Shown: positions 39 through 61,587, numbered from the stretch's first letter. The stretch: 61,713 nt of DNA from Clostridia bacterium (GCA_017531925.1 JAFXKD010000008.1:1-61713); one strand, 5' to 3'. The notes: generated by a model from the letters alone, not told the origin. Numbers and translations: made by a program.

Positions 39-150
39 AAATCCCAATTTATCGAACTAAAATGGGTGCAAACCCTTGTAGGAAGATGCACCCATAGTTC
101 AAAAATTAGTACCCATTTTGAAACGGTATCAAAATTTTGGTTTACTCACA
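39..150 (+). repeat. Conserved non-coding element, copy L (inverted homologue at 61495-61587)
   Basis: AAATCCCAATTTATCGAACTAAAA-TGGGTGCAAACC matches the reverse complement of 61551-61587 at 32/37 columns. An 11-nt variable spacer and ATGCACCC follow in both copies, then GTATCAAAATTTnnGnTTACTCACA (22/25). Confidence 0.85.
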
Positions 151-151
151 G

Positions 152-183
152 TGTGAGTGTCCATAAGGGCACTCACATTTTTT
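152..183 (+). terminator. Intrinsic-terminator-like hairpin directly after element L
   Basis: TGTGAGTGTCC-ATAA-GGGCACTCACA followed by a T run. Confidence 0.55.
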
Positions 184-299
184 ATCTGTTATTAACATTC
201 CTACAATGAAGAAACCATAATATTGATACACAAAACATCGGTATTATGGCTTTTTTATTTCAAAAAAGGTTTTTAGCCATTTTTGATAGGTTTTGTAGC

Positions 300-352
300 A
301 AAAATATAGGCTTGCCGGGAGAGCTTTCGTCCTGACAAGCCTTATTTATTTT
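300..352. terminator. Probable bidirectional terminator ending the 25 kb minus-strand operon
   Basis: AGGCTTGCCGGGA / TCCTGACAAGCCT stem (308-342) with A-rich 5' and T-rich 3' flanks, ~70 nt past the PHP stop. Confidence 0.6.
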
Positions 353-410
353 TACAGTAAAAATCAAATCTTAATTATTTAATTTCCTTATCATCTTTTA
401 ATTGGATGGA

Positions 411-1430
411 TCAGCTAAGCTCATCGATATGGTATGCTCGGCTGAATGCCTTATTGCCAAACTCGTCCACCAGGGTGATCCGTATATACCGATGCTCATT
501 TACCGCTTGCTCAGCCAGTTTAAAGTACCAATCCAGATCAAAGCTGACCTCTGTCAAAAGCTCCGCCCCTTCTGCTCCTTTAGAGTACAGCTGCCTGCAA
601 TCGGTAGAAAGACCCACAAACGCCACGGGAGAGGTAACTATTGTGATTTTGCTGCCCTCAATTGAGATCTCATAAAGCTCCGGAGCGGTTGAACAATAAA
701 AATCTCCGTTCTTTAATGATTCAAATACCTTATCGTAGGTCAATTCATCGGCGTTGACCATTACAAAGCCGCCAAAGCAATCCTTCATTCTGTGAGCATC
801 GTCGGTAGCCAGCGGAAACAATCTCTCACCCTTGCGCAAAAGGTCATCAAGGGGCTTCTCAGAATCGAAGTATCCGTTTCTTGCGCAGCCTGTGTTATAA
901 AGCTCTATTCCCCACAAGCCCTTGATGTCGATATAATCCATATAATCCTGTAATGACCATACAGGATGATTATAAGAGACCAAGCACCCCTCATCATTCG
1001 CTTTTTTTATTATGTCGTTGATACATCCCACAGAATATGAGCGATCATAATTGATCATCTCTTGCTCTGCGGTAATATAATCAAATGAATGCTTAAGCCA
1101 CATATTAGTTCTGTCAAAGGTGTTGAAGCAGTTTTGCCCTTCCCTTGGAGAATATATATTCAAATGATATGTTTTAACAAATCCAAAATCACAATCGTAT
1201 CTGTTGTTAACACTTATCTCGGTTGATGTCAGGGCAAGAAAATGCTCATCCGTCAATTCAGGATGCGGCACCATTACCTCGTGATCGGTAAATGCCACTA
1301 TAGAATATCCCTTTTCAGAATACACCTTTTTTATCTCCCCAGGAGTCATCTCCCCGTCAGAAACAGTTGTGTGGACGTGAAGATTAGCTTTATAAAAATT
1401 GCTTTTGGCAGGAAAAAGATATTTTCTCAT
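411..1430 (-). CDS. PHP-domain metallohydrolase (phosphoesterase-like), cytoplasmic
   Basis: NLHVHTTVSDG, FTDHE, NHP, IELYN and ATDDAH metal-binding motifs; RBS AGGGGG. Confidence 0.85.
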   Translation of the reverse strand: MRKYLFPAKSNFYKANLHVHTTVSDGEMTPGEIKKVYSEKGYSIVAFTDHEVMVPHPELTDEHFLALTSTEISVNNRYDCDFGFVKTYHLNIYSPREGQNCFNTFDRTNMWLKHSFDYITAEQEMINYDRSYSVGCINDIIKKANDEGCLVSYNHPVWSLQDYMDYIDIKGLWGIELYNTGCARNGYFDSEKPLDDLLRKGERLFPLATDDAHRMKDCFGGFVMVNADELTYDKVFESLKNGDFYCSTAPELYEISIEGSKITIVTSPVAFVGLSTDCRQLYSKGAEGAELLTEVSFDLDWYFKLAEQAVNEHRYIRITLVDEFGNKAFSRAYHIDELS

Positions 1431-1443
1431 ATATCCCCCTTAA

Positions 1444-3087: not shown

Positions 3088-3109
3088 ATCATTAACCTTT
3101 ATAAATATA

Positions 3110-4843
3110 TTATCTTGACAGGATCTCTCTTATTTTTGCGGCATCCACCTTTAAATCGTGGTTTTCGTCCAATAATCCGTTGACCTCCTGCTGAACGTCG
3201 GTCAACTGAGTATAGCAAAATCCTTGAAGGTCAGCCTCATAAATTCCATCGATCAACTCTTTTAATCTGTCATAGAATTCCCTGTCATCCTTAGCTGCAG
3301 AATTGTAGCCCCAATTATCGTCTCGCTGATCCTTTGCAAACATAATGCCGCCAAATTCTGTTAACAGTACAGGCTGTCCTCTATATTCATTATCATTCGC
3401 AAGCACTCTTCTGAACGTCTGGAATGCGCAGTTATAAGTTTTCTCATTATACTTTACTTTCATCTCTGAGCCGAGAGAAGAGTAATCGTGGATAGCCAAT
3501 ATATCACCGTCAGATATGTTTTCCCATCCGTCATTTGTGGAAACCAATCTTGATGCGTCCACTGACTTTGTTAAATAGTAAAGTGATTTGGCAAAATTTT
3601 GCTGTTCTTTGCTATTCATTACTTTTCTTATACCCCACGATTCATTAAGAGGGACGTAAGTTATAATGGACGAAAACTTCTTTGCGGTATTAACTATTGC
3701 CTGCCATTCATCCGTAATATAAGACACCTCATCAGAATTGAAATTGTATGCAGAGGGCATCTCACACCAAGTTAAAAGTCCCAATTCATCCGCAAGATAG
3801 TAATAATAAGGATCTTCAAATTTCTGATGCTTTCTTGCGCCGTTAAAGCCCATTTCCTTTGTAAGCTGAATGTCTTTTTTAATATCATCAACACCGGGAG
3901 GTGTCAAACCCGAATCCTTCCAATATCCTTGGTCAAGGATCAGACGCTGATACAGAGGTTTATTATTCAGCAATATTCTGCCGTCCTGTACACTGATCTT
4001 TCTCATACCGAATCTTGTGTGTACGCTATCAAGAAGAGCACCGTTTTTATACAGATTGATATCAACGTAGAACAAATTTGGATGCTCCGGCGTCCAATAT
4101 GTTACTTCATCGACAAAATTGATCTCCATCATATTAACACTGTAACGTGTATATTTCCCGTCAGGACTGATCATTTGGCGTTTGATCATTTTATTATCAT
4201 AATATACCTTAATTTCAATAAGATCAGCCAATAAATTTCTCAGCTTGATCTCACCGCTAAATGAATTGGTATCTATATCCGGAGTGATTGAAAAATCCTC
4301 GATCGAATCCTCTCCAACAAAGTCAATCCACACACTCTGCCATATACCGCTGTTGGGAGTGTACCAGCAAGCAAAAGGATCGTTGAGCCACGATTGCTTA
4401 CCTCTGGGGATCGTAGGATCCAATGGATCGTAGCATCTGACAACGATCACATTTTCACCCTCTTCTACAAATTTTGTAATGTCGACAGTGAACGGAGAAA
4501 AACCTCCGCGATGACTTATCGCATAATGTCCGTTGATCCATACTGTAGTAATATAATCACTTGCATTGAATCCCAAAATAATACTCTTACCCGCCTTATC
4601 ATAAACAAAGCTCCTTCTGTACCACAAGGTATCGTGGAAGGTCTTGTCACCAATTCCGCTTTCTTTATATTGATATGTAAACGGAACGTTGATCTCACCG
4701 GATAACTTGATATCGCCCTTATGAAGCCCTCTCAATTCCCCATCCTTATTATCATCAAATTCAAATTCCCATTTTCCGTTCAATGATAACCAGTCATCTC
4801 TTCTGAAATGAGGTCTTGGATATTCATTTCTTAATTTAAGCAT
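3110..4843 (-). CDS. GH2 glycoside hydrolase (beta-galactosidase/glucuronidase/galactofuranosidase-like), cytoplasmic
   Basis: EYPRP..RR..W.SLNG.W, LDQGYW, GFNGARKHQK, NESWG, TEFGG, GFCYTQLTDV.QE.NGL. Confidence 0.9.
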   Translation of the reverse strand: MLKLRNEYPRPHFRRDDWLSLNGKWEFEFDDNKDGELRGLHKGDIKLSGEINVPFTYQYKESGIGDKTFHDTLWYRRSFVYDKAGKSIILGFNASDYITTVWINGHYAISHRGGFSPFTVDITKFVEEGENVIVVRCYDPLDPTIPRGKQSWLNDPFACWYTPNSGIWQSVWIDFVGEDSIEDFSITPDIDTNSFSGEIKLRNLLADLIEIKVYYDNKMIKRQMISPDGKYTRYSVNMMEINFVDEVTYWTPEHPNLFYVDINLYKNGALLDSVHTRFGMRKISVQDGRILLNNKPLYQRLILDQGYWKDSGLTPPGVDDIKKDIQLTKEMGFNGARKHQKFEDPYYYYLADELGLLTWCEMPSAYNFNSDEVSYITDEWQAIVNTAKKFSSIITYVPLNESWGIRKVMNSKEQQNFAKSLYYLTKSVDASRLVSTNDGWENISDGDILAIHDYSSLGSEMKVKYNEKTYNCAFQTFRRVLANDNEYRGQPVLLTEFGGIMFAKDQRDDNWGYNSAAKDDREFYDRLKELIDGIYEADLQGFCYTQLTDVQQEVNGLLDENHDLKVDAAKIREILSR

Positions 4844-16074: not shown

Positions 16075-17736
16075 CTATTTTCCCAATATAACTATCTCGT
16101 TAAGTGAAACAGGTTTGTCTGTTTTTACGCAAATAATAACGTGATCCGCCTCGAATGTATTTAAAAATTCGATCGTAAATGCACTGTTGGGAAATACAAA
16201 TTCATCATTGTCATTAATATATCTGTCATGACAGAACTGAGAATACTGAACAACGTTACCGTTTCCAAAATCGATGTACTCGATCTCCGACACGATCTTT
16301 TCATAAAATGCACTATTATAGATCGCTATACCACCGATTTCATATATCTCGTCGAACCTCAACTCAATAAACGAGTATCCCTTTCCAAGAGCTACCTCTT
16401 TTGCGTCCTCACCCTTGAGATTATAGCAGTCAACGATATAATTGTCATTTATTGCCTCAGCATTGCTGACATTATGAGATTTCACCTGAGCGAAGGGCGC
16501 GATATTTTTATATCCGCTAAGCTCCTCGGGAAGAGGTTGTATTGAATAGGTGGGACCGTTGCAGAACGGAACTCCGTTTTCATCAAAATGCAGATAGTCA
16601 AAAGCAAAATATCTCCTTTCGTATCTGTCATTTGTATCACGTCTCTGATGAGCATGATATCCTATCATTACCTGATCGCCCATATTGAAGAAGCAGTGAT
16701 GTCCCGTACCTGATGCAAATCCCGTCCATTGGTTATAAACCGTGGAATTTTCTATATTGGTTCCCGGATATCCCAAAAGAAGATTTGTCCAGACCCCATT
16801 AGAATCATAAGGCTTTTCAAAGTTGCCAAGGGGTGAATCGGAAACCGCATAGCAAACGTTATAATACTTATTCCAACAACCGTTTACCGAATAAGTCATA
16901 TAATACTTACCGTTTGATTTGATCATAAACGGAGCTTCCGCAATAGGAAGACCGTCTCGAAGCATTTCCCAAGTAAACGGCTTGTAGATGGAGTTAGTGG
17001 AATTTAATGCTCCCGGCACAACTATCTTGGTGTAAGTGGACCAATCTGCCTCATAGGGGCTGTTCATTTTTACACCGACGATGTGCTGATTCTCGTTGCA
17101 TGCAACGCTGTAATACATATACATTTGACCGTCATCGTCAACGAAAACGGTTATATCCAAAACACCGAATGTTTTATTATTATCCAAAAACACCGGTGCT
17201 TCAAGACCGTTTACCTTGTCGTTTTGCAACGGAACGTAAGGACCAAGCGGATTATCAGCTACAACAACGCTGTTGCGGCGAATTCCGTCTTTGTCATTCG
17301 CGCTGTAATACATATAGTAAACGCCGTCAAAGCAATATAATTCCGGCGCATAGATTGCCGCGTCCGCAGACTCCCAGCCGTCATACAGCGAGGGCTCATA
17401 GACCGCCAAATGCTTCTTGTAGGTTACAAAATCCTTTGTGGAATAGCAATCTATAACGTTTCCGTTTCGGTCGCTCGTTCCCACGATATAATACGTATCA
17501 TCTTCAAAGTATATCTGCGGGTCGGGCAACGGTACATCCTTAAGATCGTTGACATACCACATTTTATTGTTGTATGTCAGATCAACACCGTCATATGTGA
17601 GCGTATGATCGATATAATCAGTTCCCTCTTCAATGTTTGATTCAACGGTCTTAGAATAACCTCCCGGATTTAAGCATCCTGACAAAGTTGATAATATCGT
17701 AACCATAATCAATAAAATAGATATTTTTTTGTACAT
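16075..17736 (-). CDS. GH43 glycoside hydrolase lipoprotein, close paralogue of 1444-3087
   Basis: Lipobox LSGC; identical blocks such as LKDVPLPDP, TYSVNGCWNKYYNVCYAVSDSP, GFASGTGHHCFF and EIVILGK. Confidence 0.85.
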   Translation of the reverse strand: MYKKISILLIMVTILSTLSGCLNPGGYSKTVESNIEEGTDYIDHTLTYDGVDLTYNNKMWYVNDLKDVPLPDPQIYFEDDTYYIVGTSDRNGNVIDCYSTKDFVTYKKHLAVYEPSLYDGWESADAAIYAPELYCFDGVYYMYYSANDKDGIRRNSVVVADNPLGPYVPLQNDKVNGLEAPVFLDNNKTFGVLDITVFVDDDGQMYMYYSVACNENQHIVGVKMNSPYEADWSTYTKIVVPGALNSTNSIYKPFTWEMLRDGLPIAEAPFMIKSNGKYYMTYSVNGCWNKYYNVCYAVSDSPLGNFEKPYDSNGVWTNLLLGYPGTNIENSTVYNQWTGFASGTGHHCFFNMGDQVMIGYHAHQRRDTNDRYERRYFAFDYLHFDENGVPFCNGPTYSIQPLPEELSGYKNIAPFAQVKSHNVSNAEAINDNYIVDCYNLKGEDAKEVALGKGYSFIELRFDEIYEIGGIAIYNSAFYEKIVSEIEYIDFGNGNVVQYSQFCHDRYINDNDEFVFPNSAFTIEFLNTFEADHVIICVKTDKPVSLNEIVILGK

Positions 17737-29292: not shown

Positions 29293-32200
29293 TTATTTTA
29301 CGTAACCGCTGCATTCCATCTCCCAGAATGTTGTCCAACCTGTTGAACCGTGACTGGGAATTGTGAATCTTATTGCAGTTGCAGAAGCTCCATTAAGATC
29401 AAATGTCAACCAGTTCTGGTCGCCGACTACATTTACACGATCATTGAAATCTGCATCGGTTGCATTTATTACAGTAGTCCACTCTCCGTCAACAAGAACA
29501 TCGATCTGAAGTCCGGTTCCAAATTGTGTAAAACCTGATTTATTGTAATCATAAAGAAGAACTCTGAATTCGTGCAATTCGCATTCAGCCCCAAGATCGA
29601 CAGTTGCTTCAACCTTTCCGCCATTCTTCTTGCTTGAGAATCTTGAAGCAAGATCTCCGTCATTGATCTTGTTATAACCAAATGATGCGCTGTAAATATT
29701 GCCAGCTGCGTCCTCTGAAGGAGTTAATGCTTTGCCGGGAAGCAAATTATCATACCAGATAGGATCGGGAGCTGATTCTGCCTTAGCGCTGCATTCTATT
29801 TCCTCGAATGAAATGCCGTCACTTGATACTGCACCTGAAATATAGAATCTTACCTTTTCAGCAACAACGCCGTCCAAATTGAATTCCAGATAATCATTGT
29901 ATTCACCTTCCACAATCACGAGATGCTCGCATACGCTTGCATTGTCGGGACAGAAAACAACATCCTTCCACTCACCGTCTGCATAAACCTGAATAAGAAT
30001 ATCAGTACCAACGCTTGCCTTCTTTTTGTCCTCAGCTCTTCCTGCGGGCTCGTAGATATAGAACTTCAAGCTATTGAGCACGGTCGCGCCTCCAAGATCC
30101 AATGTAGAATCCATAAACGCAGAGATGCTCATTTTGGTTGAAAATCTTCCGGGAGCGTTATCAGCATTTCTGATACCGTCTGTAAGATCCTCATATCCGC
30201 CGCCCTTCCACCAGCTTGCTGCCAGAACCTCTGCCCTTGCAGCATCGGTAGGAACAAATTCCTTGCCTGCGAATATATTAGCTACGTCCGTAAAGCTCTC
30301 GGAGGAAACCTTAGTAAGTCCGCATACCTCGCACGTAACCGTTGTTTTGCCGTTTTCCGTTACACCTGCATCCCATGTGTGAGCGCCATTAGAATTAATA
30401 ACCTGCTGCTCTTTAAGAACCTCACCACATACTGTGCACTTTACACCGTCAGTTAAACCGGACTGAAGGCAGGTCGCCTCTTTACCGGGAATAATTTCTT
30501 CTGTATGAACATGCTCAACAAGCAACGCACCGCTACACTCGATCTCCTGGAATGTGATACCGGTTGTAGCTATAGCACCTGAAATATAAAATCTTATTTT
30601 TTCAGCAACTATTCCATCAAATGCGAACTCCAGATAATCGTTATCTAAGCCATCAACAACAGTAAGATGTTCACTCAAGCTTGCATTATCCTTGCAGTAA
30701 AATGCGTCATACCATTTACCGTCAGAGTAAACCTGAATAAGAATATCTCTACCTATATCTGCCTTTTTGCTTTCAAGAGTCTTGCTGTCCGATCTATCGT
30801 AGAGATAGAATCTTAACGTATCAAGCATATAGGATTCACCAAGATCTATGGTAGCATCCATAAATGCTGTCGTGTTATTCAACAGGGTGGAGAATCTTCC
30901 CTCCTGCTCCAGGTTTCTGATGCCGTCCGTAAGCTTATCGTATCCTCCGCCTGCAAACCAACCTGCTATCAATACCTGTGCCTGTGCTTCGGGAGTACCT
31001 ACAAATTGCTTATTATTAAATATATTTTCTGCGTTTTCAAGCTCGTTTGATACGACCTTGCATATACCGCAAACCTCACAGGTATGTGTTACCTTATTTA
31101 CAGAATCCACACCTGCATCCCACTTGTGACCGTTTGCGGGTACGTTCTCCTGAGGTACTGTTACCGTACCGCATACTGAGCATTTCTTACCCTCTGTAAG
31201 ACCTGTTGCCGTACAATTTGCAGATACTGCGGGAATAGCTTCTTCTGTATGAGGAAGCATTTCCGTTTCTTCCTGCGCTACGAGAGTTTCACCGCATACT
31301 GCACATTTCTTACCCTCTGTAAGACCTTTGCTTGTACATGTTGCAGATACGCCGGGAACGATTTCCTCTGTATGAGGAAGCTTTTGAACGGGTTTTGTTT
31401 CTCTGCTGATCTCCTCACCGCATTTGGAACACTTGATTACGCTATCGTAAGAGCCCTCCGCTGTGCAGGTAGGTGCCTTTTCGTTATCTCTTACAGCCTC
31501 TGCAGGAGTATGCTCTGTACATATATTTGTTTTACAAATATCGCACTTATAGTCGCCGTTGTCGTCCTTATGTCCGCTTGAAGGGATAACGTCCGTGTAT
31601 GTATCTCCGCAATTACACGTATATGTTTTAATACCCGTTTCTGTGCAGGTAGGTGCCTTTGTTTCTTCGCCTATATAAGAATGCTTGGAAGCTTCCTTCT
31701 GACATCCATAGTCGCAAAGGTGATCTTTATCTGTGTCAACATCACTGTGTACGCCCTGATATACGTCACATCCGTTGTCACAAACGTGGTCGGTGTTCTC
31801 GTCCTTATGAACAAGTGCATCGATATCCTCTGTATAGCTGCCGCCGCAATTACATGTAAATGTTCTTACACCCTTTACTTCACATTTCGGCTCGGTAGTT
31901 ACTACGCCCTCACCGTAATCGTGATCGGATGCAGGCTGATTACAGTAATCACAAAGGTGATCCTTGTCAGTTGTAACATCGCTGTGCTCGCCCTGATATA
32001 CGTCACATCCGTTGTCACAAACGTGGTCTGTGTTCTCGTCCTTATGTCCGAGAGGATCAATAGTTGTTTGCACTACAAGAACTTCGCCGCAAACAGAGCA
32101 TTTTTTGCAGTCTGTACTTCCTGATGATGTACATGTGGGCGCCTCTCCTTTTACTGTTTCTTCAGTGTGTCCCAAGGGCTCGCCTTCGGTCATGCCACAT

Positions 32201-32331
32201 TCAGAACAGGTTTTTGGTGTTGTACAGTCAGCATCTACCCATGTATGCTCATGCAACAAATCACAAGAGCTCAATGCCATGATAAATACACAAAGTACTG
32301 CGATCAACAACACGATACTTTTGGTTTTCAT
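29293..32331 (-). CDS. Non-catalytic lipoprotein: His/Cys-rich repeat stalk and three discoidin/CBM32-like modules
   Basis: Start MKTKS after AAGGAG; lipobox LSSC; HTEE..P...ATCT..GLT.GKKC.VCG repeats; three modules with (LT/IN)DG..GRF, DLG, RF, EIEC. Confidence 0.75.
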   Translation of the reverse strand: MKTKSIVLLIAVLCVFIMALSSCDLLHEHTWVDADCTTPKTCSECGMTEGEPLGHTEETVKGEAPTCTSSGSTDCKKCSVCGEVLVVQTTIDPLGHKDENTDHVCDNGCDVYQGEHSDVTTDKDHLCDYCNQPASDHDYGEGVVTTEPKCEVKGVRTFTCNCGGSYTEDIDALVHKDENTDHVCDNGCDVYQGVHSDVDTDKDHLCDYGCQKEASKHSYIGEETKAPTCTETGIKTYTCNCGDTYTDVIPSSGHKDDNGDYKCDICKTNICTEHTPAEAVRDNEKAPTCTAEGSYDSVIKCSKCGEEISRETKPVQKLPHTEEIVPGVSATCTSKGLTEGKKCAVCGETLVAQEETEMLPHTEEAIPAVSANCTATGLTEGKKCSVCGTVTVPQENVPANGHKWDAGVDSVNKVTHTCEVCGICKVVSNELENAENIFNNKQFVGTPEAQAQVLIAGWFAGGGYDKLTDGIRNLEQEGRFSTLLNNTTAFMDATIDLGESYMLDTLRFYLYDRSDSKTLESKKADIGRDILIQVYSDGKWYDAFYCKDNASLSEHLTVVDGLDNDYLEFAFDGIVAEKIRFYISGAIATTGITFQEIECSGALLVEHVHTEEIIPGKEATCLQSGLTDGVKCTVCGEVLKEQQVINSNGAHTWDAGVTENGKTTVTCEVCGLTKVSSESFTDVANIFAGKEFVPTDAARAEVLAASWWKGGGYEDLTDGIRNADNAPGRFSTKMSISAFMDSTLDLGGATVLNSLKFYIYEPAGRAEDKKKASVGTDILIQVYADGEWKDVVFCPDNASVCEHLVIVEGEYNDYLEFNLDGVVAEKVRFYISGAVSSDGISFEEIECSAKAESAPDPIWYDNLLPGKALTPSEDAAGNIYSASFGYNKINDGDLASRFSSKKNGGKVEATVDLGAECELHEFRVLLYDYNKSGFTQFGTGLQIDVLVDGEWTTVINATDADFNDRVNVVGDQNWLTFDLNGASATAIRFTIPSHGSTGWTTFWEMECSGYVK
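31752..32046 (-). repeat. Recent intragenic duplication, period 237 nt (79 aa)
   Basis: 31752-31809 matches 31989-32046 at 57/58 nt (HKDENTDHVCDNGCDVYQG). Confidence 0.85.
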
Positions 32332-32364
32332 AATTATTCTCCTTTTTTCATTTTTTATAATCCG

Positions 32365-32396
32365 CACGAAAGGATATATTGGGATATCCTTTCGTG
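32365..32396. other. Perfect 13-bp intergenic stem-loop without sense-strand U-tract
   Basis: CACGAAAGGATAT-ATTGGG-ATATCCTTTCGTG. Confidence 0.75.
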
Positions 32397-32407
32397 AATT
32401 ATCTGTT

Positions 32408-35400
32408 TTATTCTGCAGCTCCAACCGGCTTTGCGCTGCATTCTATCTCCTGGAATGAAATACCATCGCTTGATGCAGGACCCGAGATATAAAACCTAAC
32501 CTTTTCAGCAACAGCTCCATTGAGATCAAACTCCAAGTAATCGTTTGCAAGTCCTTCAACGATCACCAGATGCTCGCACAAGCTTGCATTATCAGCACAG
32601 GATATCAAATCGATCCATTCGCCGTTTGCGTATATCTGGATCAGCATATCCTTACCAACACTTGCCTTTTTGGATGCTTCGGTGCTCTTGCTTGCATCAT
32701 AAATATAAAATCTTAACGTGTCGAGCGCGTATGCCTGACCAAGATCTATAGTAGCATCCATAAATACATTAGTGTTGTTCATCCAAGTGGCGAATCTTCC
32801 CACCTGGTCCTCTGTTTTGATGCCGTCCGTAAGCTTATCGTATCCGCCGCCGGCAAACCAGCCTGCTATCAATACCTGCTCCTGTGCAGCATTAGTAGGA
32901 ACAAACTGCTTATTCTTAAATACGTTTTCGATAATGCTTGGATCCGCTATGGGACCGTCATTTGCTGAAGAATCAACCGCCGTAGAAGTTACTCCATAGC
33001 ACTCCATCTCATAGAGGGTGGTCCAACCGCTTTCCGTCTGACCGGGTATGGTAAACATAACCTTGCTTGCATAAACGTCAGCCATGTCAAATATCAACCA
33101 GTCTCCGACACCGCAGGGATTGTCAACAAGATACTGCTGCAAATCATCAATCGTCTCGCAATTCACTACGGTTGTCCAGGCTCCGTCAAAATAGACCTGA
33201 ATCTTAAGACCCGTACCGAATTTGCTCAATCCGTCCTTGTAAAGATAAATCTTAAATTCGGACAGGTTGTACACAGCTCCGAGATTCAAGGTCGCTTCTA
33301 CCTTGCCGCCGTTCAGCTTGCTTGAATATCTTCCTGAGGCTTCTTCGTAAATAATACCGTCGGTAAGCGTCTGATAACCGTAAGCAGTCTGGTACATATT
33401 ACCTGATGCGCTGCTCGAAGGAACAAAGGCCTTGCCGTCAAATACGTTAACGTATTCGATCTTTTCCTCACTTACTAAGCTGCCCGACAATGTGATCTCT
33501 CCTAAGTTAACCGTGCCGGAAGCGGTAATTCTCACCTTATTTGCCTTGTCGCCATTTACATCAAATACCAAGCATCCGCCGGAAAGGTATTTATTCGCCT
33601 CCTCCTTTGATTTGCAGGAAGCAATAACGTGCCATTCTCCGTTATAAAGTCTTTCTATCTTTAAGCTTTCGGGCACTGATACAGTACCGTCAAAATAGAT
33701 CCTGAGCTCGTCAAGTGAATAAACACCGCCGATATCGATATTTATCTTAAGAGCTGTGCCAAGATCGGTGTATTCGATCTTCTTACCGTTCAAGATATTG
33801 CTTGCATTGTTGCCGGGGGTAAGAGCCACAAGCTCACTTTCTTTACCCGTAAGCGCAGATACAAAGCTTATTGCATAAGATCTTGATGCATCATAAGTAG
33901 CAGCTATACTAAGACCTGACGCCTCTTTAACAAGACTGTATTCGCCGCCGTTTAACGATTTTGAATATAAGCGGATCTTGCCCGCAACTCCGTTATCAGC
34001 CGCCTTAACGTTCAACTTACCGTCTTCAACCGACCAGATAACAGATTCAAATTCAAAATCCAAAGAGATGGGGTTGGAATAGCAAAGAGTCCTCTTACTC
34101 TCCGCACCGTCATTATTCACAGCGGTAACGGCAAAGGTCTTTCTTACATTTTCCTTACCTTCTTCTGTCTTAAGTCTGAACGATGCTTCAGTAGTGCTGC
34201 CTACAAAAGTGTAGCAAGGATCGTTCTCGTAAGCCACATATACGTTATATCCTTTCGCACCGTCCACAGCTGTCCAGCTGAGATCAAATGTACCAAGATT
34301 TACTCTTGCAAAGCTGATATCCGCGGGCTTTTCTACAGCTGCGATCTTTCCGAAGCCGGTGATATAATATCTCTCTCCCTTTACGGTATCAAACGATATT
34401 ATGCTTCCGTTAAGCTCACAATCGACCTTGTCGCCCTTGGAATTATATACAGCAACATCGGCAAAGCCGGGATATTTAACGGATACTCTGCCTCCCTTGT
34501 TCGAAAGGAGGTTGATCTTATTTGCAACACCGTTTTCCCAAGAAACACTAACTTCATAGTTGCCTCTTGCTACCAATCCTGTATATGTACCCGTGTGCCA
34601 CTCTGCAGGAAGCGCGGGAAGTATTTCAACGAATTCCTCATCACTCTGGAGAAGCATCTCCGCGATAGCCGCGGTAGTACCGCTGCTCGCCTCGATCTGG
34701 AAGATCTTTCCGCAAACCATTAAAAGGTTCTCCAGCGTAGAGTTTCTCAGATTGCCCTCAAGCATATCAAGTGCCAGATCGCCTTCGCCGGCTCTTGCAT
34801 ACATTGCCTGCTTATGCGCCCAAGCCCAAGCAACTATACTTGCTTCATTAGTTGCGGTAGTTCCGTTGGGCCAATCCGTAAGTCCGTTATTTCTGCCTGC
34901 AAGCGAAACCAGCGCCGCATCCATCCAAGCGTCCGTTCCCGAATTGATAACGTTACCGGGATACAAGCCTACAAGCTGAGAAATATGTCTGTGGTTGGGA
35001 TTGCCGAGCGAACCGTAATAATCTTCCTCGCGGAATTCCTTTATCTGTCCCGACAAGCCAACGTTGATAGGATCGTATTTATCAATCTGCTCCATTATGG
35101 TGCTAAGTATCGAATAATCCTCGGATGAAAGCAATTCACTGTCGGTAAGATCAATACCAAGCTCCTTTGCGCATTGAAGTGCGCCGTAATTGTTTATATA
35201 AGCCAGAGTCTGCGCGTAAGCAGTACCTGTTGTATAATACCAAGCACCGTCAACATACATTTCGGGTGAATCGCAATATTCTACCAAATATTTACCGTCA
35301 TATTCCTTAACGCATTTGGTAACGAATCTTGCAGCATTAGCCAACACATCATATACGACCTGAAGCACCTTTTCGTCCTTGGTGTACTCATAATAATCGT

Positions 35401-36988
35401 AGAACAGCTGAGTCAAAAGACCAAGGTTTCCGCAGGAACGGTCGCTGCTGATAAAGAACGGATTACCGGAAACGCCCATAGTCCAACCGTTTCCGCCATC
35501 CTTGTTGTAAACACCCGGATTATGTGTAGCTATCACATTATCCGCATTCTTCTCTGCGATATTTATATACGCGTTATTATAATCAACATAGGGGATGAAG
35601 GTTTCCGCAAGGTTAGTACTGAAAACGTGCCAATAGTTCATTTGAATATTGATATTGCTCCAATATCCGCTTGTCCACGCAGGAACGTTATAGCAGTTCC
35701 AAACACCCTGTAGATTTGCAGGGAGAGATCCTTCCCTTGATGAAGCTATTATCAAATATCTGCCGTATTGGAATAACAGCGTATCGAGATAGTTACTGTG
35801 TACACCTGCATTATATCTTTCCAAAAGCTTATCCGTAGTAACAGAGTAATCTGCAGGATCGCAATTAAGATCGAGATCTACCCTTCCGAACAAGCTCTGA
35901 TAATCGCTGAGATGTCTTTCTTTCAAATAGTCATAAGCCTCTTCAAAAGCCATTTCATCTATTTCATCAGTCACGTAATAGAGCTGTCCCTTTATCTTTT
36001 TGCGTGTATCCTCAAGATTTGTGGTAGCAGTTTGCTTGATATGACTGTACTGACCGTTGGCAAAGTTCTCTTCGCAAAGCTCATAGTCAGTTCCATATGT
36101 AGCCACAATGATCGCGCTTGTAGCGTCCTCTACCCTGATAACACCATCCACATCCGTGATCACCTTGCCGTCGGAGTCGGTATAGGTGTGTTCGACTGTA
36201 TCTGCCACCATCGTTCCGCCGTTTGTATATACGCGATAGTATCCTGCGAAATCAACACCGTAATAGCCAAGAGTTCCGCTAAGCTCTATACAGCCAATAC
36301 CGTATTCAATACTTGAAACCACAGTTCCCTTCTTTGACAACCCGTCACCCGCAGTATCCATATAGCTTTGCTCAAACGGGATAGTGGGGCGAAGTGTAAA
36401 TGAAAGAGGGCCGTCCTGCGCATCAAGTCTTATAACAAGCACCTGGTCGGGATAAGAAACGAAGTATTCTCTTGAGTATGATGCACCGTCATAATCATAG
36501 GTCGTAGAAGCTATGGATGTTCTAAGATCGAGAGATCTCTGATAGTTACTTACATCCGATGATACGTGATCAAAATCAATATAGGTCTCTGAAAAATTGT
36601 TGAGACCCGCAACTTCGGGCCATGATGTAACACCGTTCACGACCTGTACCTTTTGCCACGGATTAGCCAAGGTCTTTTCGCTTATCTGTATTCTTTCGGT
36701 CTCAACACGTCCAAATACATTAGCGCCGAAATAACCGTTACCCAAGGGGATGGACCAGTTCTGCCAACCGATATCCTGTCCCGCCATCATCGTTGCCTTA
36801 GGAGAGCCTTCGTTTATAAAAGGTGCTTCTTCGTCATACCATAACTTCAACGGTATATTTTTAGCATTTACCGCATATTTATCCACTTTAACTCCTCCAT
36901 TTCCGTGATTTGGCAACGGACATGCCACCAAACACAACATTAACAACAGACATAAAGCCATTATTAACGATTGTTTCATTCTTTTCAT
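32408..36988 (-). CDS. GH95 (alpha-L-fucosidase/L-galactosidase family) lipoprotein with Fn3-like and discoidin-like modules
   Basis: Lipobox LVAC; PLGNG, YSREYFVSYPD, LFQYGRYL.IASSR.GSLPANLQGVWN, NINIQMNYW, SPE, HRHISQL.GLYPG, AEMLLQS; start MKRMKQ after AAAGGGG. Confidence 0.9.
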   Translation of the reverse strand: MKRMKQSLIMALCLLLMLCLVACPLPNHGNGGVKVDKYAVNAKNIPLKLWYDEEAPFINEGSPKATMMAGQDIGWQNWSIPLGNGYFGANVFGRVETERIQISEKTLANPWQKVQVVNGVTSWPEVAGLNNFSETYIDFDHVSSDVSNYQRSLDLRTSIASTTYDYDGASYSREYFVSYPDQVLVIRLDAQDGPLSFTLRPTIPFEQSYMDTAGDGLSKKGTVVSSIEYGIGCIELSGTLGYYGVDFAGYYRVYTNGGTMVADTVEHTYTDSDGKVITDVDGVIRVEDATSAIIVATYGTDYELCEENFANGQYSHIKQTATTNLEDTRKKIKGQLYYVTDEIDEMAFEEAYDYLKERHLSDYQSLFGRVDLDLNCDPADYSVTTDKLLERYNAGVHSNYLDTLLFQYGRYLIIASSREGSLPANLQGVWNCYNVPAWTSGYWSNINIQMNYWHVFSTNLAETFIPYVDYNNAYINIAEKNADNVIATHNPGVYNKDGGNGWTMGVSGNPFFISSDRSCGNLGLLTQLFYDYYEYTKDEKVLQVVYDVLANAARFVTKCVKEYDGKYLVEYCDSPEMYVDGAWYYTTGTAYAQTLAYINNYGALQCAKELGIDLTDSELLSSEDYSILSTIMEQIDKYDPINVGLSGQIKEFREEDYYGSLGNPNHRHISQLVGLYPGNVINSGTDAWMDAALVSLAGRNNGLTDWPNGTTATNEASIVAWAWAHKQAMYARAGEGDLALDMLEGNLRNSTLENLLMVCGKIFQIEASSGTTAAIAEMLLQSDEEFVEILPALPAEWHTGTYTGLVARGNYEVSVSWENGVANKINLLSNKGGRVSVKYPGFADVAVYNSKGDKVDCELNGSIISFDTVKGERYYITGFGKIAAVEKPADISFARVNLGTFDLSWTAVDGAKGYNVYVAYENDPCYTFVGSTTEASFRLKTEEGKENVRKTFAVTAVNNDGAESKRTLCYSNPISLDFEFESVIWSVEDGKLNVKAADNGVAGKIRLYSKSLNGGEYSLVKEASGLSIAATYDASRSYAISFVSALTGKESELVALTPGNNASNILNGKKIEYTDLGTALKINIDIGGVYSLDELRIYFDGTVSVPESLKIERLYNGEWHVIASCKSKEEANKYLSGGCLVFDVNGDKANKVRITASGTVNLGEITLSGSLVSEEKIEYVNVFDGKAFVPSSSASGNMYQTAYGYQTLTDGIIYEEASGRYSSKLNGGKVEATLNLGAVYNLSEFKIYLYKDGLSKFGTGLKIQVYFDGAWTTVVNCETIDDLQQYLVDNPCGVGDWLIFDMADVYASKVMFTIPGQTESGWTTLYEMECYGVTSTAVDSSANDGPIADPSIIENVFKNKQFVPTNAAQEQVLIAGWFAGGGYDKLTDGIKTEDQVGRFATWMNNTNVFMDATIDLGQAYALDTLRFYIYDASKSTEASKKASVGKDMLIQIYANGEWIDLISCADNASLCEHLVIVEGLANDYLEFDLNGAVAEKVRFYISGPASSDGISFQEIECSAKPVGAAE

Positions 36989-37152
36989 CGCTATTTCCCC
37001 TTTCCAAAATATATAATATTTTTCAAGAACACAAGACAACAGATCTGACAATCTGACAGTCATTTTTCCGTTTTTTATACACTAGCAGACGGGCATCTGC
37101 CTGTCCGCACAAAGACATGCCTTTATGAAAAGAAAAATTATTATAGATATAC

Positions 37153-57997: not shown

Positions 57998-58020
57998 AAA
58001 TATGAATGTTATTCATATTT
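57998..58020. promoter_or_regulatory. Palindromic operator, probably bound by the adjacent TetR
   Basis: AAATATGAAT-GTT-ATTCATATTT just downstream of the operon -10. Confidence 0.7.
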
Positions 58021-58030
58021 GCTTTATTAT

Positions 58031-58059
58031 ATTATATATAATTTTTACCATTTTGTCAA
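58031..58059 (-). promoter_or_regulatory. Consensus sigma-A promoter of the maoC-phaZ operon
   Basis: Perfect TTGACA-17bp-TATAAT on the minus strand. Confidence 0.85.
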
Positions 58060-58131
58060 TAACATCTTTAATATTTCTATGTTCATAAAGATTTTTGGTG
58101 AAAAATATACAAAAAAATATATAAATAACTA

Positions 58132-58160
58132 TTGCAAATCACAATAAAAAATGTTATAAT
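58132..58160 (+). promoter_or_regulatory. Sigma-A promoter of tetR
   Basis: TTGCAA-17bp-TATAAT with extended TG. Confidence 0.7.
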
Positions 58161-58191
58161 CATCTCAAGAACAACAAAAAGGGAGCGAAAA

Positions 58192-58809: not shown

Positions 58810-58814
58810 ACAAA

Positions 58815-58851
58815 AATCGGAGGGAATTTTCTTTCCTCCGATTATTTTTTT
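58815..58851 (+). terminator. Terminator of tetR
   Basis: AATCGGAGG...CCTCCGATT followed by a T run. Confidence 0.8.
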
Positions 58852-58890
58852 GTTTTATGTGTAAATTTGACAAATCAAGAAAATATTTGG

Positions 58891-58919
58891 TTGACTTTTT
58901 GTGTAATTTATAGTATAAT
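58891..58919 (+). promoter_or_regulatory. Sigma-A promoter of the riboswitch/kinase transcript
   Basis: TTGACT-17bp-TATAAT; predicted +1 near 58926, the first base of P1. Confidence 0.75.
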
Positions 58920-58925
58920 AGTAAA

Positions 58926-58983
58926 GGTATAAGTTTATGATATGGATAAACGTTTCTACGACCGCCGAGAATGGTTGACTACC
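58926..58983 (+). ncRNA. Purine (guanine-type, C74) riboswitch aptamer, variant
   Basis: P1 GGTA/TACC; TAA; P2 GTTTAT/ATAAAC with loop GATATGG; J2/3 GTTTCTAC; P3 GACCG/TGGTT with loop CCGAGAA; GAC-TA. Confidence 0.8.
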
Positions 58984-59019
58984 GCGGACATTTTATATCG
59001 CGTGCAGTCGCCTTTTTTT
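58973..59019 (+). terminator. Riboswitch-linked terminator overlapping the aptamer 3' strand
   Basis: GGTTGACTACCGCGG / TCGCGTGCAGTCGCC imperfect stem followed by T7. Confidence 0.6.
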
Positions 59020-59124
59020 ATCCTTTTTGACACGATTTTGTGTTAACAAACTGTTAACAAGCATAAGATGATTTGTTAACCTGACAGCAAACCTTAAAAA
59101 TTCATCCCGAAAGGAGATCAAAAT

Positions 59125-60825
59125 ATGAAATTATACATTGACGGACACGAATTCGAAGCAAGAGCGGACCAGTCGCTCTTTGACATTATAAAGGAGCTTG
59201 GGCTCTATTCGGGCAAGCTCTCCTCCGACCCACTTGTGGCAAAGCTTGCAGGACGCGTCTTCACACTCAATTACGTTCCCCTGCGCTCAAAGGACGTATC
59301 CCCCGACCGCGAGACTATCAGAAAAGCGGTGGAAGCATCGGGAGGCAACGTCCGCCTTTTCAGATACGACCATCCCACAGGTCGAGAGGCATACGTCAGA
59401 ACTGCTCAGTTCATCATCTTTCTGGCTCTTGGAAGGCTCTATCCCGGTGCCATCGGTAAAATGAGCTGCACACTTGGTAATTCAATATATTTCAGCGTGA
59501 ATGGTGCGCCCGAGTTTTCAGCCGACGACCTCGCAAGCGAGGTACACAAAATAGTTAAGGAGGATATCCCCCTTCTGCGCCGTCGAATACCCATAGACGA
59601 GGCAATAAAACGATATTCCCTTGCAGGTCAGACGGACAAGGTGCGACTTCTCCGTTATCGCGGCAAGGATTATTTTACGATCTACGAGCACGATGGATAT
59701 GCGGACTATTTCTACGGCGAGATGCTTCCCTCCACCTCCTTCCTTCGCTCCTGGAGCATAGTTGAGGCAAAGGGCGGATTTATATTCGTTCTTCCCGACC
59801 CCAAGGATCCCGATAGAGTTTCCGTATATAAGCATATGCCCTCTTTGTTCAGCGTTTATTCGGAGGGTGAAAAATGGAGCGAGCTTATGGGCTGCGAAAC
59901 CCTCGCAGAGCTTAACGAGCTTACCGAAAGCGGCAAGATACGCGAGCTTATAAGAGTGAACGAGGCGCTTCACGAAAAGAGATTTTCGCAGATCGCGGAT
60001 ATGATCTGTGAGAGGGGTGCAAAGGCAGTAATGCTTGCAGGTCCCAGCTCGTCGGGTAAGACAACGAGCGCAAACAGACTTGCCACTCAGCTCCGCGTTC
60101 ACGGTAAATCCCCCATCCTTATGAGCCTTGACGATTACTACATCGACAGAGATAAGATAGCTCCCGGTCCCGACGGAAAGATCGACCTTGAGCATATAAA
60201 TACCATTGATACCGCGCTTTTCGGAAGGCATCTTCGCGAGCTTTTTGAGGGCAAGGAGGTAGAGATCCCCACATTCAGCTTCAAGCTTGGCAAGAGAGTG
60301 TGGACGGGACACAAAATGCAGCTCAAGGAAAATTCCGTTATCATCGTTGAGGGAATACACGGCTTAAATCCCGTATTAGTGCCCGAGGACCTTGATCCGA
60401 AACTCGTTTTCAGAGTTTACGTAAGTCCCCTTCTCCCGCTCAACTTCGACTATCATAACAGAATACCCACCTCGACCTTAAGGCTCCTCCGCCGCACAGT
60501 GCGCGATTTTGAAAGCCGCGGCGCGAGCGTTCAGAGAACGCTTGATATGTGGGATTCCGTAAGACGCGGCGAGGAGAGATGGATATTCCCCTATCAGGAA
60601 AATGCTGACGTCATCTTCAACAGCTCCACTCTCTATGAGCTGGCGGTGATCAAAAAATATATCTATCCCCTTCTCACGAAGGTCGATCCGAGCGAGGAAT
60701 GCTACGAGCAGGTGCGCGCGATGGTAGGACTTCTCAATTACGTTCGCGATGCGGACGTTGAGGACGAGATCCCCCCCACGAGCATCGTTCGTGAATTCAT
60801 CGGCGGAAACAGTTTTTACAGATAA
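59125..60825 (+). CDS. Nucleoside (uridine/PRK-family) kinase with ThrRS-like N-terminal domains
   Basis: ThrRS-like N-region (DYFYG.M.PST..L); AGPSSSGKTT, SLDDYY, EGIH.LN, RLLRR.VRD...RG, WIFPYQE.AD..FNS. Confidence 0.88.
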   Translation: MKLYIDGHEFEARADQSLFDIIKELGLYSGKLSSDPLVAKLAGRVFTLNYVPLRSKDVSPDRETIRKAVEASGGNVRLFRYDHPTGREAYVRTAQFIIFLALGRLYPGAIGKMSCTLGNSIYFSVNGAPEFSADDLASEVHKIVKEDIPLLRRRIPIDEAIKRYSLAGQTDKVRLLRYRGKDYFTIYEHDGYADYFYGEMLPSTSFLRSWSIVEAKGGFIFVLPDPKDPDRVSVYKHMPSLFSVYSEGEKWSELMGCETLAELNELTESGKIRELIRVNEALHEKRFSQIADMICERGAKAVMLAGPSSSGKTTSANRLATQLRVHGKSPILMSLDDYYIDRDKIAPGPDGKIDLEHINTIDTALFGRHLRELFEGKEVEIPTFSFKLGKRVWTGHKMQLKENSVIIVEGIHGLNPVLVPEDLDPKLVFRVYVSPLLPLNFDYHNRIPTSTLRLLRRTVRDFESRGASVQRTLDMWDSVRRGEERWIFPYQENADVIFNSSTLYELAVIKKYIYPLLTKVDPSEECYEQVRAMVGLLNYVRDADVEDEIPPTSIVREFIGGNSFYR

Positions 60826-60829
60826 ATCC

Positions 60830-60860
60830 AAAAAACTCCCACGCTCTGTGTGGGAGTTTT
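60830..60860. terminator. Bidirectional terminator
   Basis: AAAACTCCCAC-N7-GTGGGAGTTTT between convergent genes. Confidence 0.8.
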
Positions 60861-60861
60861 A

Positions 60862-61398
60862 TTATTTGTCTAATAAGTTAAGCAGCTCGCCCGCTCTCAT
60901 CAAAACGGGCAATTCCCTGTTTGCTATGAGCCGTCCGAGCGGAGTCGTCGCGCATCTTTCATATTCCGCGACCGCATCGTCAAAGCTCAACTTAAGTGTG
61001 GAAAGATGAAAGCTCTCTATCTCATCCTTGGTCATATGCTTTTCGCCAAAGGCTGATATTTTGCAAAGATAATAGTTGTTTATATTGTGCCTGTGGATAA
61101 GATTATAGTAGTCGCTGACCACTCCCACCTTGCAAAGCACCTCCGCCACCGCTCCAAGCTCCTCTTCAAGCTCTCGCAGAATAGCAACGTCAGAGTCCTC
61201 GCCTGCTTCCACTCCGCCACCCGCGGTCTCGATGCAGGTCGCCTTGCCGAAATCGTCGTCACGCTTAACTCTTACAAAATAAAAATAGCCCTCATCGTCA
61301 AAGGCTATCGCACGGGCGATCTGCCTGTCATGATCTATATATTCAAGAGGCCATTCATTGTCAGAAAGATTTAATATCAGCTGATTATTGTTTTTCAT
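60862..61398 (-). CDS. NUDIX hydrolase
   Basis: Nudix box GGGVEAGEDSDVAILRELEEELG; start MKNNNQ after AGGAG. Confidence 0.88.
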   Translation of the reverse strand: MKNNNQLILNLSDNEWPLEYIDHDRQIARAIAFDDEGYFYFVRVKRDDDFGKATCIETAGGGVEAGEDSDVAILRELEEELGAVAEVLCKVGVVSDYYNLIHRHNINNYYLCKISAFGEKHMTKDEIESFHLSTLKLSFDDAVAEYERCATTPLGRLIANRELPVLMRAGELLNLLDK

Positions 61399-61494
61399 AT
61401 TTTCTCCTATAATTAACTCGTTAGCAGAGCGTTCGAATGATGGATTAAATTCCTCATCCCGTAGCAACGAGTCGATTGACTCGGTCTTTTTTGT

Positions 61495-61587
61495 TGTGAG
61501 TAATCTGAAATTTTGATACAATTTATTTTGGGGGTGCATTTCGGTGAAACGGTTTACACCCATTTTTAGCTAGATAAATTGGAATTT
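61495..61587 (-). repeat. Conserved non-coding element, copy R (inverted homologue of 39-150)
   Basis: Minus strand AAATTCCAATTTATCTAGCTAAAAATGGGTGTAAACC-N11-ATGCACCC...GTATCAAAATTTCAGATTACTCACA, starting 2 nt after the GNAT stop. Confidence 0.85.

Follow-up and report, generated by a model that had tools for sequence, protein, structure and literature searches.

A palindromic junction site at both ends of a gut Clostridia contig and its possible role as a boundary of accessory-gene islands

Introduction

The stretch of DNA analysed here, termed the window, is 61,713 nucleotides (nt) in length and is the entire contig C33 of a 1.14-Mb, 65%-complete metagenome-assembled genome (MAG) of a Clostridia bacterium (GCA_017531925.1 JAFXKD010000008.1:1-61713). 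Its two ends carry the same non-coding element in inverted orientation, an arrangement pointed out in an earlier note on this DNA, which suggested that the element might be a recombination terminus or the end of an array of small cargo genes. At the start of the element is a short palindrome, referred to as the 'F' palindrome, which is the exact point joining unrelated upstream genes and unrelated downstream modules in many combinations.

The two ends of the window

The two copies of the element lie at 39-150 (+) and 61587-61495 (-). A repeat search of the window recovered them as three collinear inverted pairs, which are listed here with the genes and features of both ends.

Inverted pair 1: 39-62 with 61564-61587, 24 nt, 88%
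Inverted pair 2: 59-93 with 61532-61566, 35 nt, 77%, collinear with pairs 1 and 3
Inverted pair 3: 121-150 with 61495-61524, 30 nt, 83%
2-19 (+): end of a GDSL-type lipase gene, the last five codons (QLLGR) and TAA, in an open frame that reaches the contig end
36-60 (+): left junction site, TACAAA-TCCCAA-TTTATC (36-53) with right-arm extension GAACTAA (54-60)
61-150 (+): left F1 module (alignment, structure prediction, element model), with inverted 7-mers GGGTGCA (64-70) and TGCACCC (87-93) and a third copy, GTACCCA (109-115)
125-150 (+): AT-rich right block of the left F1 module, GGTATCAAAATTTTGGTTTACTCACA
150-186 (+): terminator-like hairpin with a T-run, the hairpin proper at 150-179
206-380 (+): inter-cassette spacer, with a second hairpin AACCATAATATTGATAC...GTATCGGTATTATGG and then a GC-rich hairpin
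61442-61494 (-): truncated bidirectional terminator and TTGCTACGGGATGAGGAATTTAATCC, the same sequence that trails tRNA-Leu(GAG) in relatives of the genus
61495-61565 (-): right F module, a short variant without the third 7-mer, with GGGTGTA (61561-61555) and TGCACCC (61538-61532)
61520-61495 (-): right block of the right F module, TGTATCAAAATTTCAGATTACTCACA
61566-61590 (-): right junction site, AATAAA-TTCCAA-TTTATC (61590-61573) with TAGCTAA (61572-61566)
61593-61712 (-): end of a GNAT-like gene, the last 40 codons, running off the right contig end; its stop TAA is 61592-61590

The shared end element is real and goes far beyond chance. A sequence-only model, built from six copies (two from the window and four from other genomes of the genus) with a mean column identity of 81%, gave E=2.2e-31 for the left copy and E=5.2e-21 for the right. 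A 15-nt core pattern was present in 21 of 31 related genomes, including 16 of the 18 other genomes of the genus, with up to 31 exact copies in a single genome, and its reversed control gave 0 in all 31. Together, the model scores and the core matches exclude chance as the source of the likeness. Several details of the earlier note hold at this level: the right copy begins 2 nt past the TAA of the gene before it, the GGGTGYA and TGCACCC motifs can pair (a GGTGCA/TGCACC helix of six pairs is predicted), and the likeness between the copies stops with the third block, after ACTCACA. The left copy represents the long form of the F module and the right copy the short form. Of the unrelated hairpins that had been placed behind each copy, the left one stands as the terminator-like hairpin, while the right one is the remnant of a truncated bidirectional terminator.

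At the left, the 38 bases before the copy belong to the lipase gene, most of which lies off the contig. Window 11-34 (24 nt) has an exact match in 34 species representatives and always ends an open reading frame (ORF) of 238 amino acids (aa) wherever the upstream sequence has been assembled; a homologue at locus L104 matches Pfam Lipase_GDSL_2 (E=1.7e-19), which gives an identity to the gene that had been suspected outside the left end. The spacer of the left site is TCCCAA in the window and TTCCAA for the same cassette in other genomes. On the inner side of the left copy, about 230 further bases align with the spacer between two units of a related array, L197, except for a 56-nt stretch (~153-208) that has no counterpart there and contains the left hairpin. 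The spacer at 206-380 is homologous to the L197 spacer that leads to the next promoter module (76% column identity in the alignment), and homology stops near the stop (411) of a convergent PHP-domain gene (Pfam PHP, ORF 414-1430). The homology of the left end to related arrays thus reaches ~380, further than the earlier note described.

At the right, the 126 bases before the copy hold the end of the GNAT-like gene, which also lies mostly off the contig. Pfam gave no match on its 40-aa fragment, and a 66%-identical ORF at L058 is Acetyltransf_1 (E=4.6e-12); the small GNAT gene of the earlier note is thus backed by its homologue, although the fragment itself is unscored. Small cargo genes do lie outward of both ends, as had been proposed. 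On the inner side of the right copy come the sequence that trails tRNA-Leu(GAG) and then a NUDIX gene.

The ends of C33 overlap with no other contig of the bin. Further information about the right end comes from Logan contigs of four animal-gut runs (X1, X2, X4, and X5) placed on 60400-61713; the DNA itself may have come from some of these runs. In X2 and X4, the contig on the chromosome side (depth 16.5 and 15.1) ends at 61605, and its last 30 nt (61576-61605) are shared with a 340-nt contig that carries the GNAT end and is 4-6 times deeper (68.9 and 85.9). The branch in the assembly graph falls inside the right site, after AAATTCCAATTT. The greater depth and the position of the branch indicate that the GNAT side also occurs in several other contexts or genomes. 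One GNAT variant leads into a variant site, AAATTAGAATTTGAC, and further metagenome contigs match the F module only from ~61486-61490 rightwards, which marks its inner boundary. In X1 and X5, single contigs span the whole right end as it is oriented here and continue for another 221 and 349 nt, which shows the arrangement in the window to be real. No joints were seen in the Logan contigs of the four runs over this interval, and such contigs cannot reveal rare forms. Assembly breaks directly upstream of the element are common in other MAGs too, in agreement with the branching of the graph; two other contigs end inside the site, and the link between the element and the break, already suspected, is thereby supported.

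A palindromic site joins unrelated genes and modules

The site is a palindrome of 18-32 bp, GAYAAA-TTCCAA-TTTRTC. Across 63 distinct left flanks, the three positions directly ahead of AAATTCC were G in 32, A in 44, and Y in 61, and these counts define the common unit. The full palindrome GTTCGnnAAATTCCAATTTnnCGAAC (TTAGTTCGAYAAATT-CC-AATTTRTCGAACTAA) is present in 28 species representatives and can be read as 10-6-10, or as a perfect 15-2-15 arrangement around a non-palindromic CC (GTTCGnnAAATT-CC-AATTTnnCGAAC). It almost always stands directly behind a small accessory gene: a same-strand ORF stops at -40 to +12 in 70 of 80 loci, compared with 215 of 1600 random positions in the same loci.

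Shuffling of the two sides was followed in 76 loci. Seven of eight upstream families with several members join more than one downstream family, all ten such downstream families join more than one upstream family, and homology breaks at -1 to -5 and at +22 to +36. The loci were collected by a 22-mer, the first 22 bases of the element, and are biased towards one right arm; the right break limit is partly set by that 22-mer. The 3' tag of the GDSL gene does not depend on it and provides an unbiased test of exchange. TTAC+AAATTCCAAT comes directly after the tag in each of the 34 genomes, and past AAATTCCAATTT the sequence continues in 32 contigs in 10 kinds that differ from their first bases, of which the F1 type is commonest; the remaining two contigs end within the site. 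The right arm after the tag (TTTATC, TTTGTC, TTTATA, TTTGAC, or TTTATT) varies with the continuation. Since arm and continuation differ together, each arm travels with its own flank while the centre is shared, a pattern that is probably the one left by conservative site-specific recombination. Along with the shuffling across loci, these findings bear out the view of the element as a recombination terminus or junction. The repeated 8-9-mers that had been offered as 'arm-like' motifs are not supported.

A third palindrome type, AAATTTCAGTTTRTC, stands directly before the F site in several genomes (L129 at 4000-4050, L332, L324, and L318), which means that different site classes can stand in tandem.

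Distribution in the genus and beyond

The two copies in the window are by no means the only ones. The first 22 bases of the element have exact matches in at least 120 species-representative genomes of gut Clostridia, and among the matches listed the carriers include Acutalibacteraceae, Christensenellaceae, Oscillospiraceae-type MAGs, and two cultured isolates, with Neglectibacter caecimuris and Pseudoflavonifractor phocaeensis among the cultured carriers. Within the genus, the element model found 25 copies in 12 of 23 genomes, and 18 of these begin at -6 to +34 nt relative to a stop codon on the same strand. The open frames that end there are of unrelated kinds (GNAT, XRE-type helix-turn-helix (HTH), alpha/beta hydrolase, GDSL lipase, TrkA, hexapeptide acetyltransferase, and MazG-like), and copies that are assembled at that point have a terminator directly after them, with a sequence that differs among copies. 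A contig end lies within 1.5 kb upstream in 17 of the 25 copies, and within 500 nt in 12 of those. A third copy of the element type stands at the extreme start of contig C36 of genome G000 (2-107), with the same ends and three direct TGTACGCA motifs replacing the TGCACCC set; L293 has this variant behind its GDSL gene. Other internal 7-9-mers of this sort occur in some relatives.

The element was unmatched in plasmids. Phage records gave a single match, an UNVERIFIED 8.9-kb faecal scaffold that carries a GNAT gene and the element without phage-specific evidence, and viral contigs gave two; a phage origin was considered and dropped. No description of the element was found in the literature (text without supplementary files), which is not proof that it is undescribed.

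This distribution bears on the possibility that the copies are terminal inverted repeats of one 61-kb invertible or mobile unit. Two inverted copies at two ends are what such a unit would show. Against it, the same module stands singly after many unrelated genes in many genomes, the two copies differ in their centre (TCCCAA and TTCCAA) and in length variant, the X1 and X5 contigs bridge the right end and run on beyond it, and the locus of the left end is located elsewhere in genome G031. The earlier note had thought this alternative improbable, and on the present evidence it is hardly credible.

A second alternative is that a unit of ~115 bp, AAATTCC..ACTCACA, behaves like a miniature inverted-repeat transposable element (MITE), moved into short 3' untranslated regions (UTRs) by a transposase acting in trans, with gene-less 'class M' repeats as its relatives. 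The unit has discrete ends on both sides, is multi-copy and dispersed, and exists in size variants, down to a minimal 52-nt form that consists of the site and the right block; its ends form a weak inverted repeat (AAATTCCAAT and AAATTTTGAT). The genus also has many gene-less elements of 225-500 nt with ends (A and B) related to those of the element and with long GC-rich hairpins, and a single genome can hold up to 31 exact core matches. Yet wherever the upstream gene is assembled, the copy points the same way relative to it, contrary to what random insertion would produce, and the left arm and centre stay with the GDSL gene in 34 of 34 genomes whatever comes next. The terminal inverted repeat matches at about 7 of 10 positions only, the flanks of the inspected copies showed no target-site duplication, and the ORF families up to 4 kb from the site (167 loci) included no transposase-bearing autonomous partner. 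On balance, movement of this kind is unlikely.

The gene-less elements look like spacer-plus-promoter-module units that lack a gene. Examples in G000 are C4 16097-16473; C5 6350-6575 and 8061-8292; C26 26739-26890; C37 7807-8066; C48 23905-24181; C27 5272-5677; and C19 5925-6396. They have the ends AAATTTTGATTTATCGGGGAG... and ...CTCCCCGMTAAATCCCAATTTATC and are placed after terminators and before promoters. Two of them matched 'miRNA precursors' in the E-value mode of Rfam, and many contigs of related MAGs start 125-145 nt ahead of their right end.

Units, arrays, and tRNA genes

In five loci (L197, L150, L129, L063, and L062) the site is part of a unit with this sequence of parts: promoter, AAACTCACC, a second palindrome termed P, ribosome-binding site (RBS) and small gene or genes, and the F site. 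Behind it come, in many cases, an F module of ~95 nt ending in ACTCACA, and then a terminator, a spacer with GC-rich hairpins, and the next promoter module. The promoter is near-consensus (TTGATT, 17 nt, TGTGATAAAAT), and the P palindrome, GATAAA-TAAGAA-TTTRNC, is 7-9 nt after the near-consensus -10 box and just before the RBS. L197 is an array of two units, an alpha/beta-hydrolase-like gene and then a GDSL lipase; L150 contains a pair of units that follow a tRNA gene (recognized by eye, outside the ARAGORN loci); and L129 has three sites. In eight loci (L098, L105, L127, L129, L130, L147, L150, and L197), co-oriented F sites are separated by one or a few genes. Among ~29 loci with at least 1.1 kb assembled upstream, seven have a further co-oriented site within 2.5 kb upstream, although one site counted here, in L098, lies beyond that distance. 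The expectation that cores would recur after consecutive small genes therefore holds in part: short co-oriented arrays exist, but most loci show a single site. Genes for XRE-type HTH proteins are the commonest cargo (13 loci, from ORF families and Pfam).

The position of the two palindromes raises the possibility that they are regulatory, with P as an operator or 5'-UTR hairpin, F as a 3'-UTR element that binds protein or RNA, and shuffling due to ordinary horizontal gene transfer and homologous recombination within the bases in common. P is right behind the -10 box and ahead of the RBS, F lies between the stop codon and the terminator and would be transcribed, both are 6-6-6 palindromes, and the prevalence of XRE-type HTH cargo is of the kind that such a role might suggest. 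The prediction with RNAalifold, in contrast, is a single 6-bp helix with 0 compensatory pairs, and Rfam gave no match: a gathering scan of the window with Rfam 15 found a purine riboswitch only, and an E-value scan of the ends gave a chance-level miRNA (E=0.35). In addition, the shared 12-26 nt are very short for homologous recombination, yet breakpoints are confined to them, and integrative elements directly abut the site. We regard a regulatory explanation of the palindromes as quite unlikely.

Transfer RNA genes are found near many of the arrays. They lie 0.9-1.3 kb upstream of the first site in several loci (tRNA-Pro in L094, L098, and L145; tRNA-Gly in L101; tRNA-Leu in three loci of the genus), and in L105 a tRNA-Pro gene is ~3.5 kb upstream of the first co-oriented site. 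Upstream of the NUDIX gene the neighbours differ across all 14 loci of the genus, and the regions downstream of trkA differ in all 6 loci compared; neither comparison gave a clean empty/occupied pair.

Duplicates of the last 20-26 bases of tRNA-Leu(GAG) are present in L039 (449-471) and in L084 (after trkA), ~150 nt beyond the intact gene or within the same spacer; they are the footprint that a separate integrase, one targeting tRNA genes, left at this hot spot. Mimicry of a tRNA by the right end of the element was also considered and rejected: ARAGORN called a weak antisense tRNA-Ile on one copy only (L126 2913-2988 (+), with the anticodon at the unusual position 38), and likeness to the 3' end of tRNA-Leu was unconvincing by eye. 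The tRNA-Ile call is probably spurious because no other copy of the element was called.

Recombinases and relaxases next to the site

Genes of mobile elements were surveyed through ORF families within 4 kb of the site in the 167 loci, and the counts refer to those loci that gave ORFs. A MobA/MobL relaxase family is found in nine loci (median start +652; Pfam MobA_MobL on the L110 member), a small 92-aa protein family downstream of the site in six, and a large serine recombinase family in six (median start +2521). In L110, the large serine recombinase is a 582-aa protein with Resolvase, Recombinase, and Zn-ribbon domains, encoded 2.5 kb downstream. A common right flank consists of a bidirectional terminator and then the 3' end of a gene for a 484-aa tyrosine recombinase, in tandem with a second one, and 6 of 11 close homologues of this integrase have the site 85-94 nt past the stop codon. 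The presence of these relaxase, serine recombinase, and tandem tyrosine recombinase genes next to the site indicates that integrative and mobilizable elements (IMEs) often abut it.

In the window there is no PF00589 match, while serine recombinases were not searched for there; the statement that it encodes no recombinase thus stands for tyrosine recombinases. The three PF00589 matches of the genome are on C14, C19, and C46. Nearly all genomes of the genus have a tyrosine recombinase of ~340 aa, and it is the sole one detected in G002, which has 31 sites. The idea that a recombinase heads the arrays does not hold, as they begin with a promoter module and a P palindrome and have no recombinase next to them.

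The relaxase genes suggest a further alternative, in which the site is oriT-like: a MobA/MobL-type relaxase would nick the palindrome, and segments between two copies would be mobilized when the relaxase initiates at one and terminates at the other. In the nine relaxase loci, the relaxase gene begins a few hundred bases past the site and reads in the same direction, which is where an oriT normally stands, and Pre/Mob relaxases can recombine at their sites. Most relaxases, however, nick 3' of an intact inverted repeat, whereas here the junction is at the centre of the palindrome and the left arm is replaced. Most site loci have no relaxase nearby, and of 30 loci of distant relaxase homologues 24 had nothing like the site and 6 had weak look-alikes. 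An oriT-like origin of the junctions appears improbable.

Comparison with known systems

Integron attC sites and Vibrio cholerae repeats (VCRs) are repeats of ~60-130 bp right 3' of small cargo ORFs, co-oriented, with conserved ends and a variable, partly palindromic middle; the consensus boxes of attC are RYYYAAC (inverse core) and GTTRRRY (core). The element resembles them in being a co-oriented repeat of similar size immediately 3' of a small cargo ORF, in its conserved ends and its variable middle with partial palindromes, and in cargo rich in acetyltransferases and small enzymes. Its ends in all six aligned copies are AAATTCC... and ...TTACTCACA, and the attC boxes were not found there. 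No IntI, attI, and Pc were found heading an array, in keeping with the absence of PF00589 from the window and the start of arrays at a promoter module and P. An attC site stands directly 3' of a promoterless ORF; the 3' position is seen in 70 of 80 loci, but the units have their own promoters. Arrays of 1-3 units, the promoters of the cassettes, and the Gram-positive Clostridia host are further differences. Because attC-type boxes are lacking and the cassettes have their own promoter modules, the proposal of an integron-like array does not hold in the strict sense, and the likeness, an analogy, is functional only.

Short dispersed repeats offer another comparison. Similar to the element, ERIC and Correia repeats and MITEs are short, dispersed, partly palindromic, transcribed intergenic sequences, some with promoters. 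Unlike these repeats, the element is strictly oriented to its upstream gene, is positioned at the stop codon, and shuffles at one palindrome.

With two arms of ~11 bp and a 6-bp centre, sites of the Xer/dif type are compatible with the 10-6-10 reading of the full site, the arms of which are a weak match to the known dif consensus. Acinetobacter pdif modules consist of accessory modules between Xer-dependent dif-like sites (PMC7399989). In common with them and with integrative mobile elements exploiting Xer (IMEX), the present system has short palindromic sites with a 6-bp centre, accessory modules, and no dedicated recombinase nearby. It differs from the pdif modules in that the sites are co-oriented rather than alternating, and Xer action here is putative.

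An imperfect palindrome around a non-palindromic dinucleotide is a feature of the att sites of large serine recombinases, and the full site in its 28 species representatives has it. The 15-2-15 palindrome around CC and the 582-aa recombinase downstream are reminiscent of such sites in Tn4451-type clostridial IMEs (PMC5704250). Unlike the case of those sites, the reciprocal junction expected at the other end of the element was not found in L110, and the recombinase is missing from most site-carrying genomes.

The closest described process is the site-specific accretion of IMEs and of decayed, cargo-only cis-mobilizable elements (CIMEs) in Firmicutes, including those with serine and 'Tyr duo' integrases (PMC5704250). 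Its features there (PMC5704250) have counterparts here: tandem small units bounded by repeated att-like sites, many units without genes for integration and transfer, a relaxase with a serine recombinase or two tandem tyrosine recombinases directly at the site, and tRNA genes nearby. Units flanked by directly repeated sites were seen in the eight loci with co-oriented F sites, and integrase and relaxase genes accompany some units (nine relaxase loci, six serine recombinase loci, and tandem tyrosine recombinases in L218). In contrast to that process, the site here is an 18-32 bp palindrome behind the stop of every cargo gene instead of the 3' end of a single target gene, the units have a standard promoter module and a second palindrome type, and no cognate integrase was found.

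A model for the islands

With little better than even confidence, we lean towards reading both copies as distal boundary modules of modular accessory-gene islands, built by accretion at site-specific junctions of a cassette or IME-CIME type. Islands of this type would be widespread in gut Clostridia. The two copies in the window would be hybrid junctions of two independent islands facing one another over 61 kb of ordinary chromosome, and their inverted orientation would mean no more than that. The inner arm and the F module would stay with the chromosome, and the outer arm would come from the GDSL-lipase unit at the left and from the GNAT-like unit at the right. Tandem accretion of decayed cargo-only units (CIME-like) and incoming IMEs would build the islands. 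The modules seen downstream of the F palindrome include the F module, the element with tandem tyrosine recombinases, and elements with a MobA/MobL relaxase and a large serine recombinase. The F module may hold accessory binding sites or be a remnant of the end of a unit. Assembly would have stopped at both ends because the outer units are shared with other genomes or contexts.

The combinations would arise by conservative site-specific recombination, with a crossover in the centre of the palindrome and an enzyme supplied in trans, either host Xer-like or encoded by an IME. A tyrosine recombinase, of the host Xer-like type or element-encoded, is possible in view of the 6-bp centre; a large serine recombinase is also possible, since the CC-centred 15-2-15 palindrome fits; a relaxase is a more distant candidate.

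Several observations weigh against this reading of the copies as island boundaries. No excision product, circle, or empty/occupied pair at an orthologous locus was seen in comparisons of MAGs and contigs, and these comparisons rest on sequence, mostly from MAGs. Most loci have a single site and not an array. The P and F palindromes differ in their centre, so that one enzyme acting on both is not evident. The recombinases show no constant link with the site: tyrosine recombinase ORFs are found in 4 of 80 site loci, 5 of 11 close and 69 of 69 distant homologues of the 484-aa integrase are without it, and counts of PF00589 matches and of sites are mismatched (1 match and 31 sites in G002, 4 matches and 0 sites in G008). 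Among 23 genomes of the genus, only 1 has a close homologue of the large serine recombinase. The reciprocal half-site expected at the far end of the relaxase/recombinase element was not found, with no match at up to 4 mismatches in L110 or in 10 other loci.

A more tentative possibility, to which we give clearly less than even weight, is that the units belong to an undescribed cassette system of gut Clostridia, in which units with their own promoters and bounded by P and F are exchanged, stacked beside tRNA genes, and shared between bacterial families through a recombinase acting in trans. That recombinase may be of the host Xer type and the ~95-nt F module an accessory site, in which case the system might be a Gram-positive analogue of the integron.

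Other features of the window and of locus L005

Apart from the two ends, a purine riboswitch aptamer (RF00167, 45.2 bits, gathering score 37) is located at 58905-59001 (+), upstream of a 566-aa ORF at 59125-60825. Within this ORF, 60580-60653 is a short multi-copy or widely shared segment: the summed contig depth over that of the flanks is 2-fold in X5 and 8- to 22-fold in X1, X2, and X4, and many short contigs match it at 90-95% identity in the four gut metagenomes. The stretches 1784-2721 and 16418-17355, 14.6 kb apart, are 70-93% identical in several blocks and lie inside minus-strand ORFs of 547 and 553 aa, which are likely to be paralogous genes. ORFs of 1043 and 1551 aa at 29293-37063 (-) contain internal direct repeats of 95-238 nt with 60-85% identity, which suggests repeat-domain surface proteins. 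In locus L005 (715-921, contig C23 of G000), there is a T-box leader-like match of 66.2 bits, under the gathering score of 93.

Biological significance

Even if the element were a mere dispersed repeat, it would be a recurrent source of contig ends and mis-binning. If it is a working site, it would explain why MAG assemblies break at these places, and its 22-32 bp would provide a tag to find islands and insertion hot spots in metagenomes. The compact palindrome and the candidate recombinases could also be tried as genetic tools in organisms that are hard to manipulate. For the biology of these bacteria, a working site would explain how small accessory genes move between distantly related gut Clostridia, the mobile cargo in question being acetyltransferases, lipases, HTH regulators, MazG-like proteins, and metal-resistance operons.

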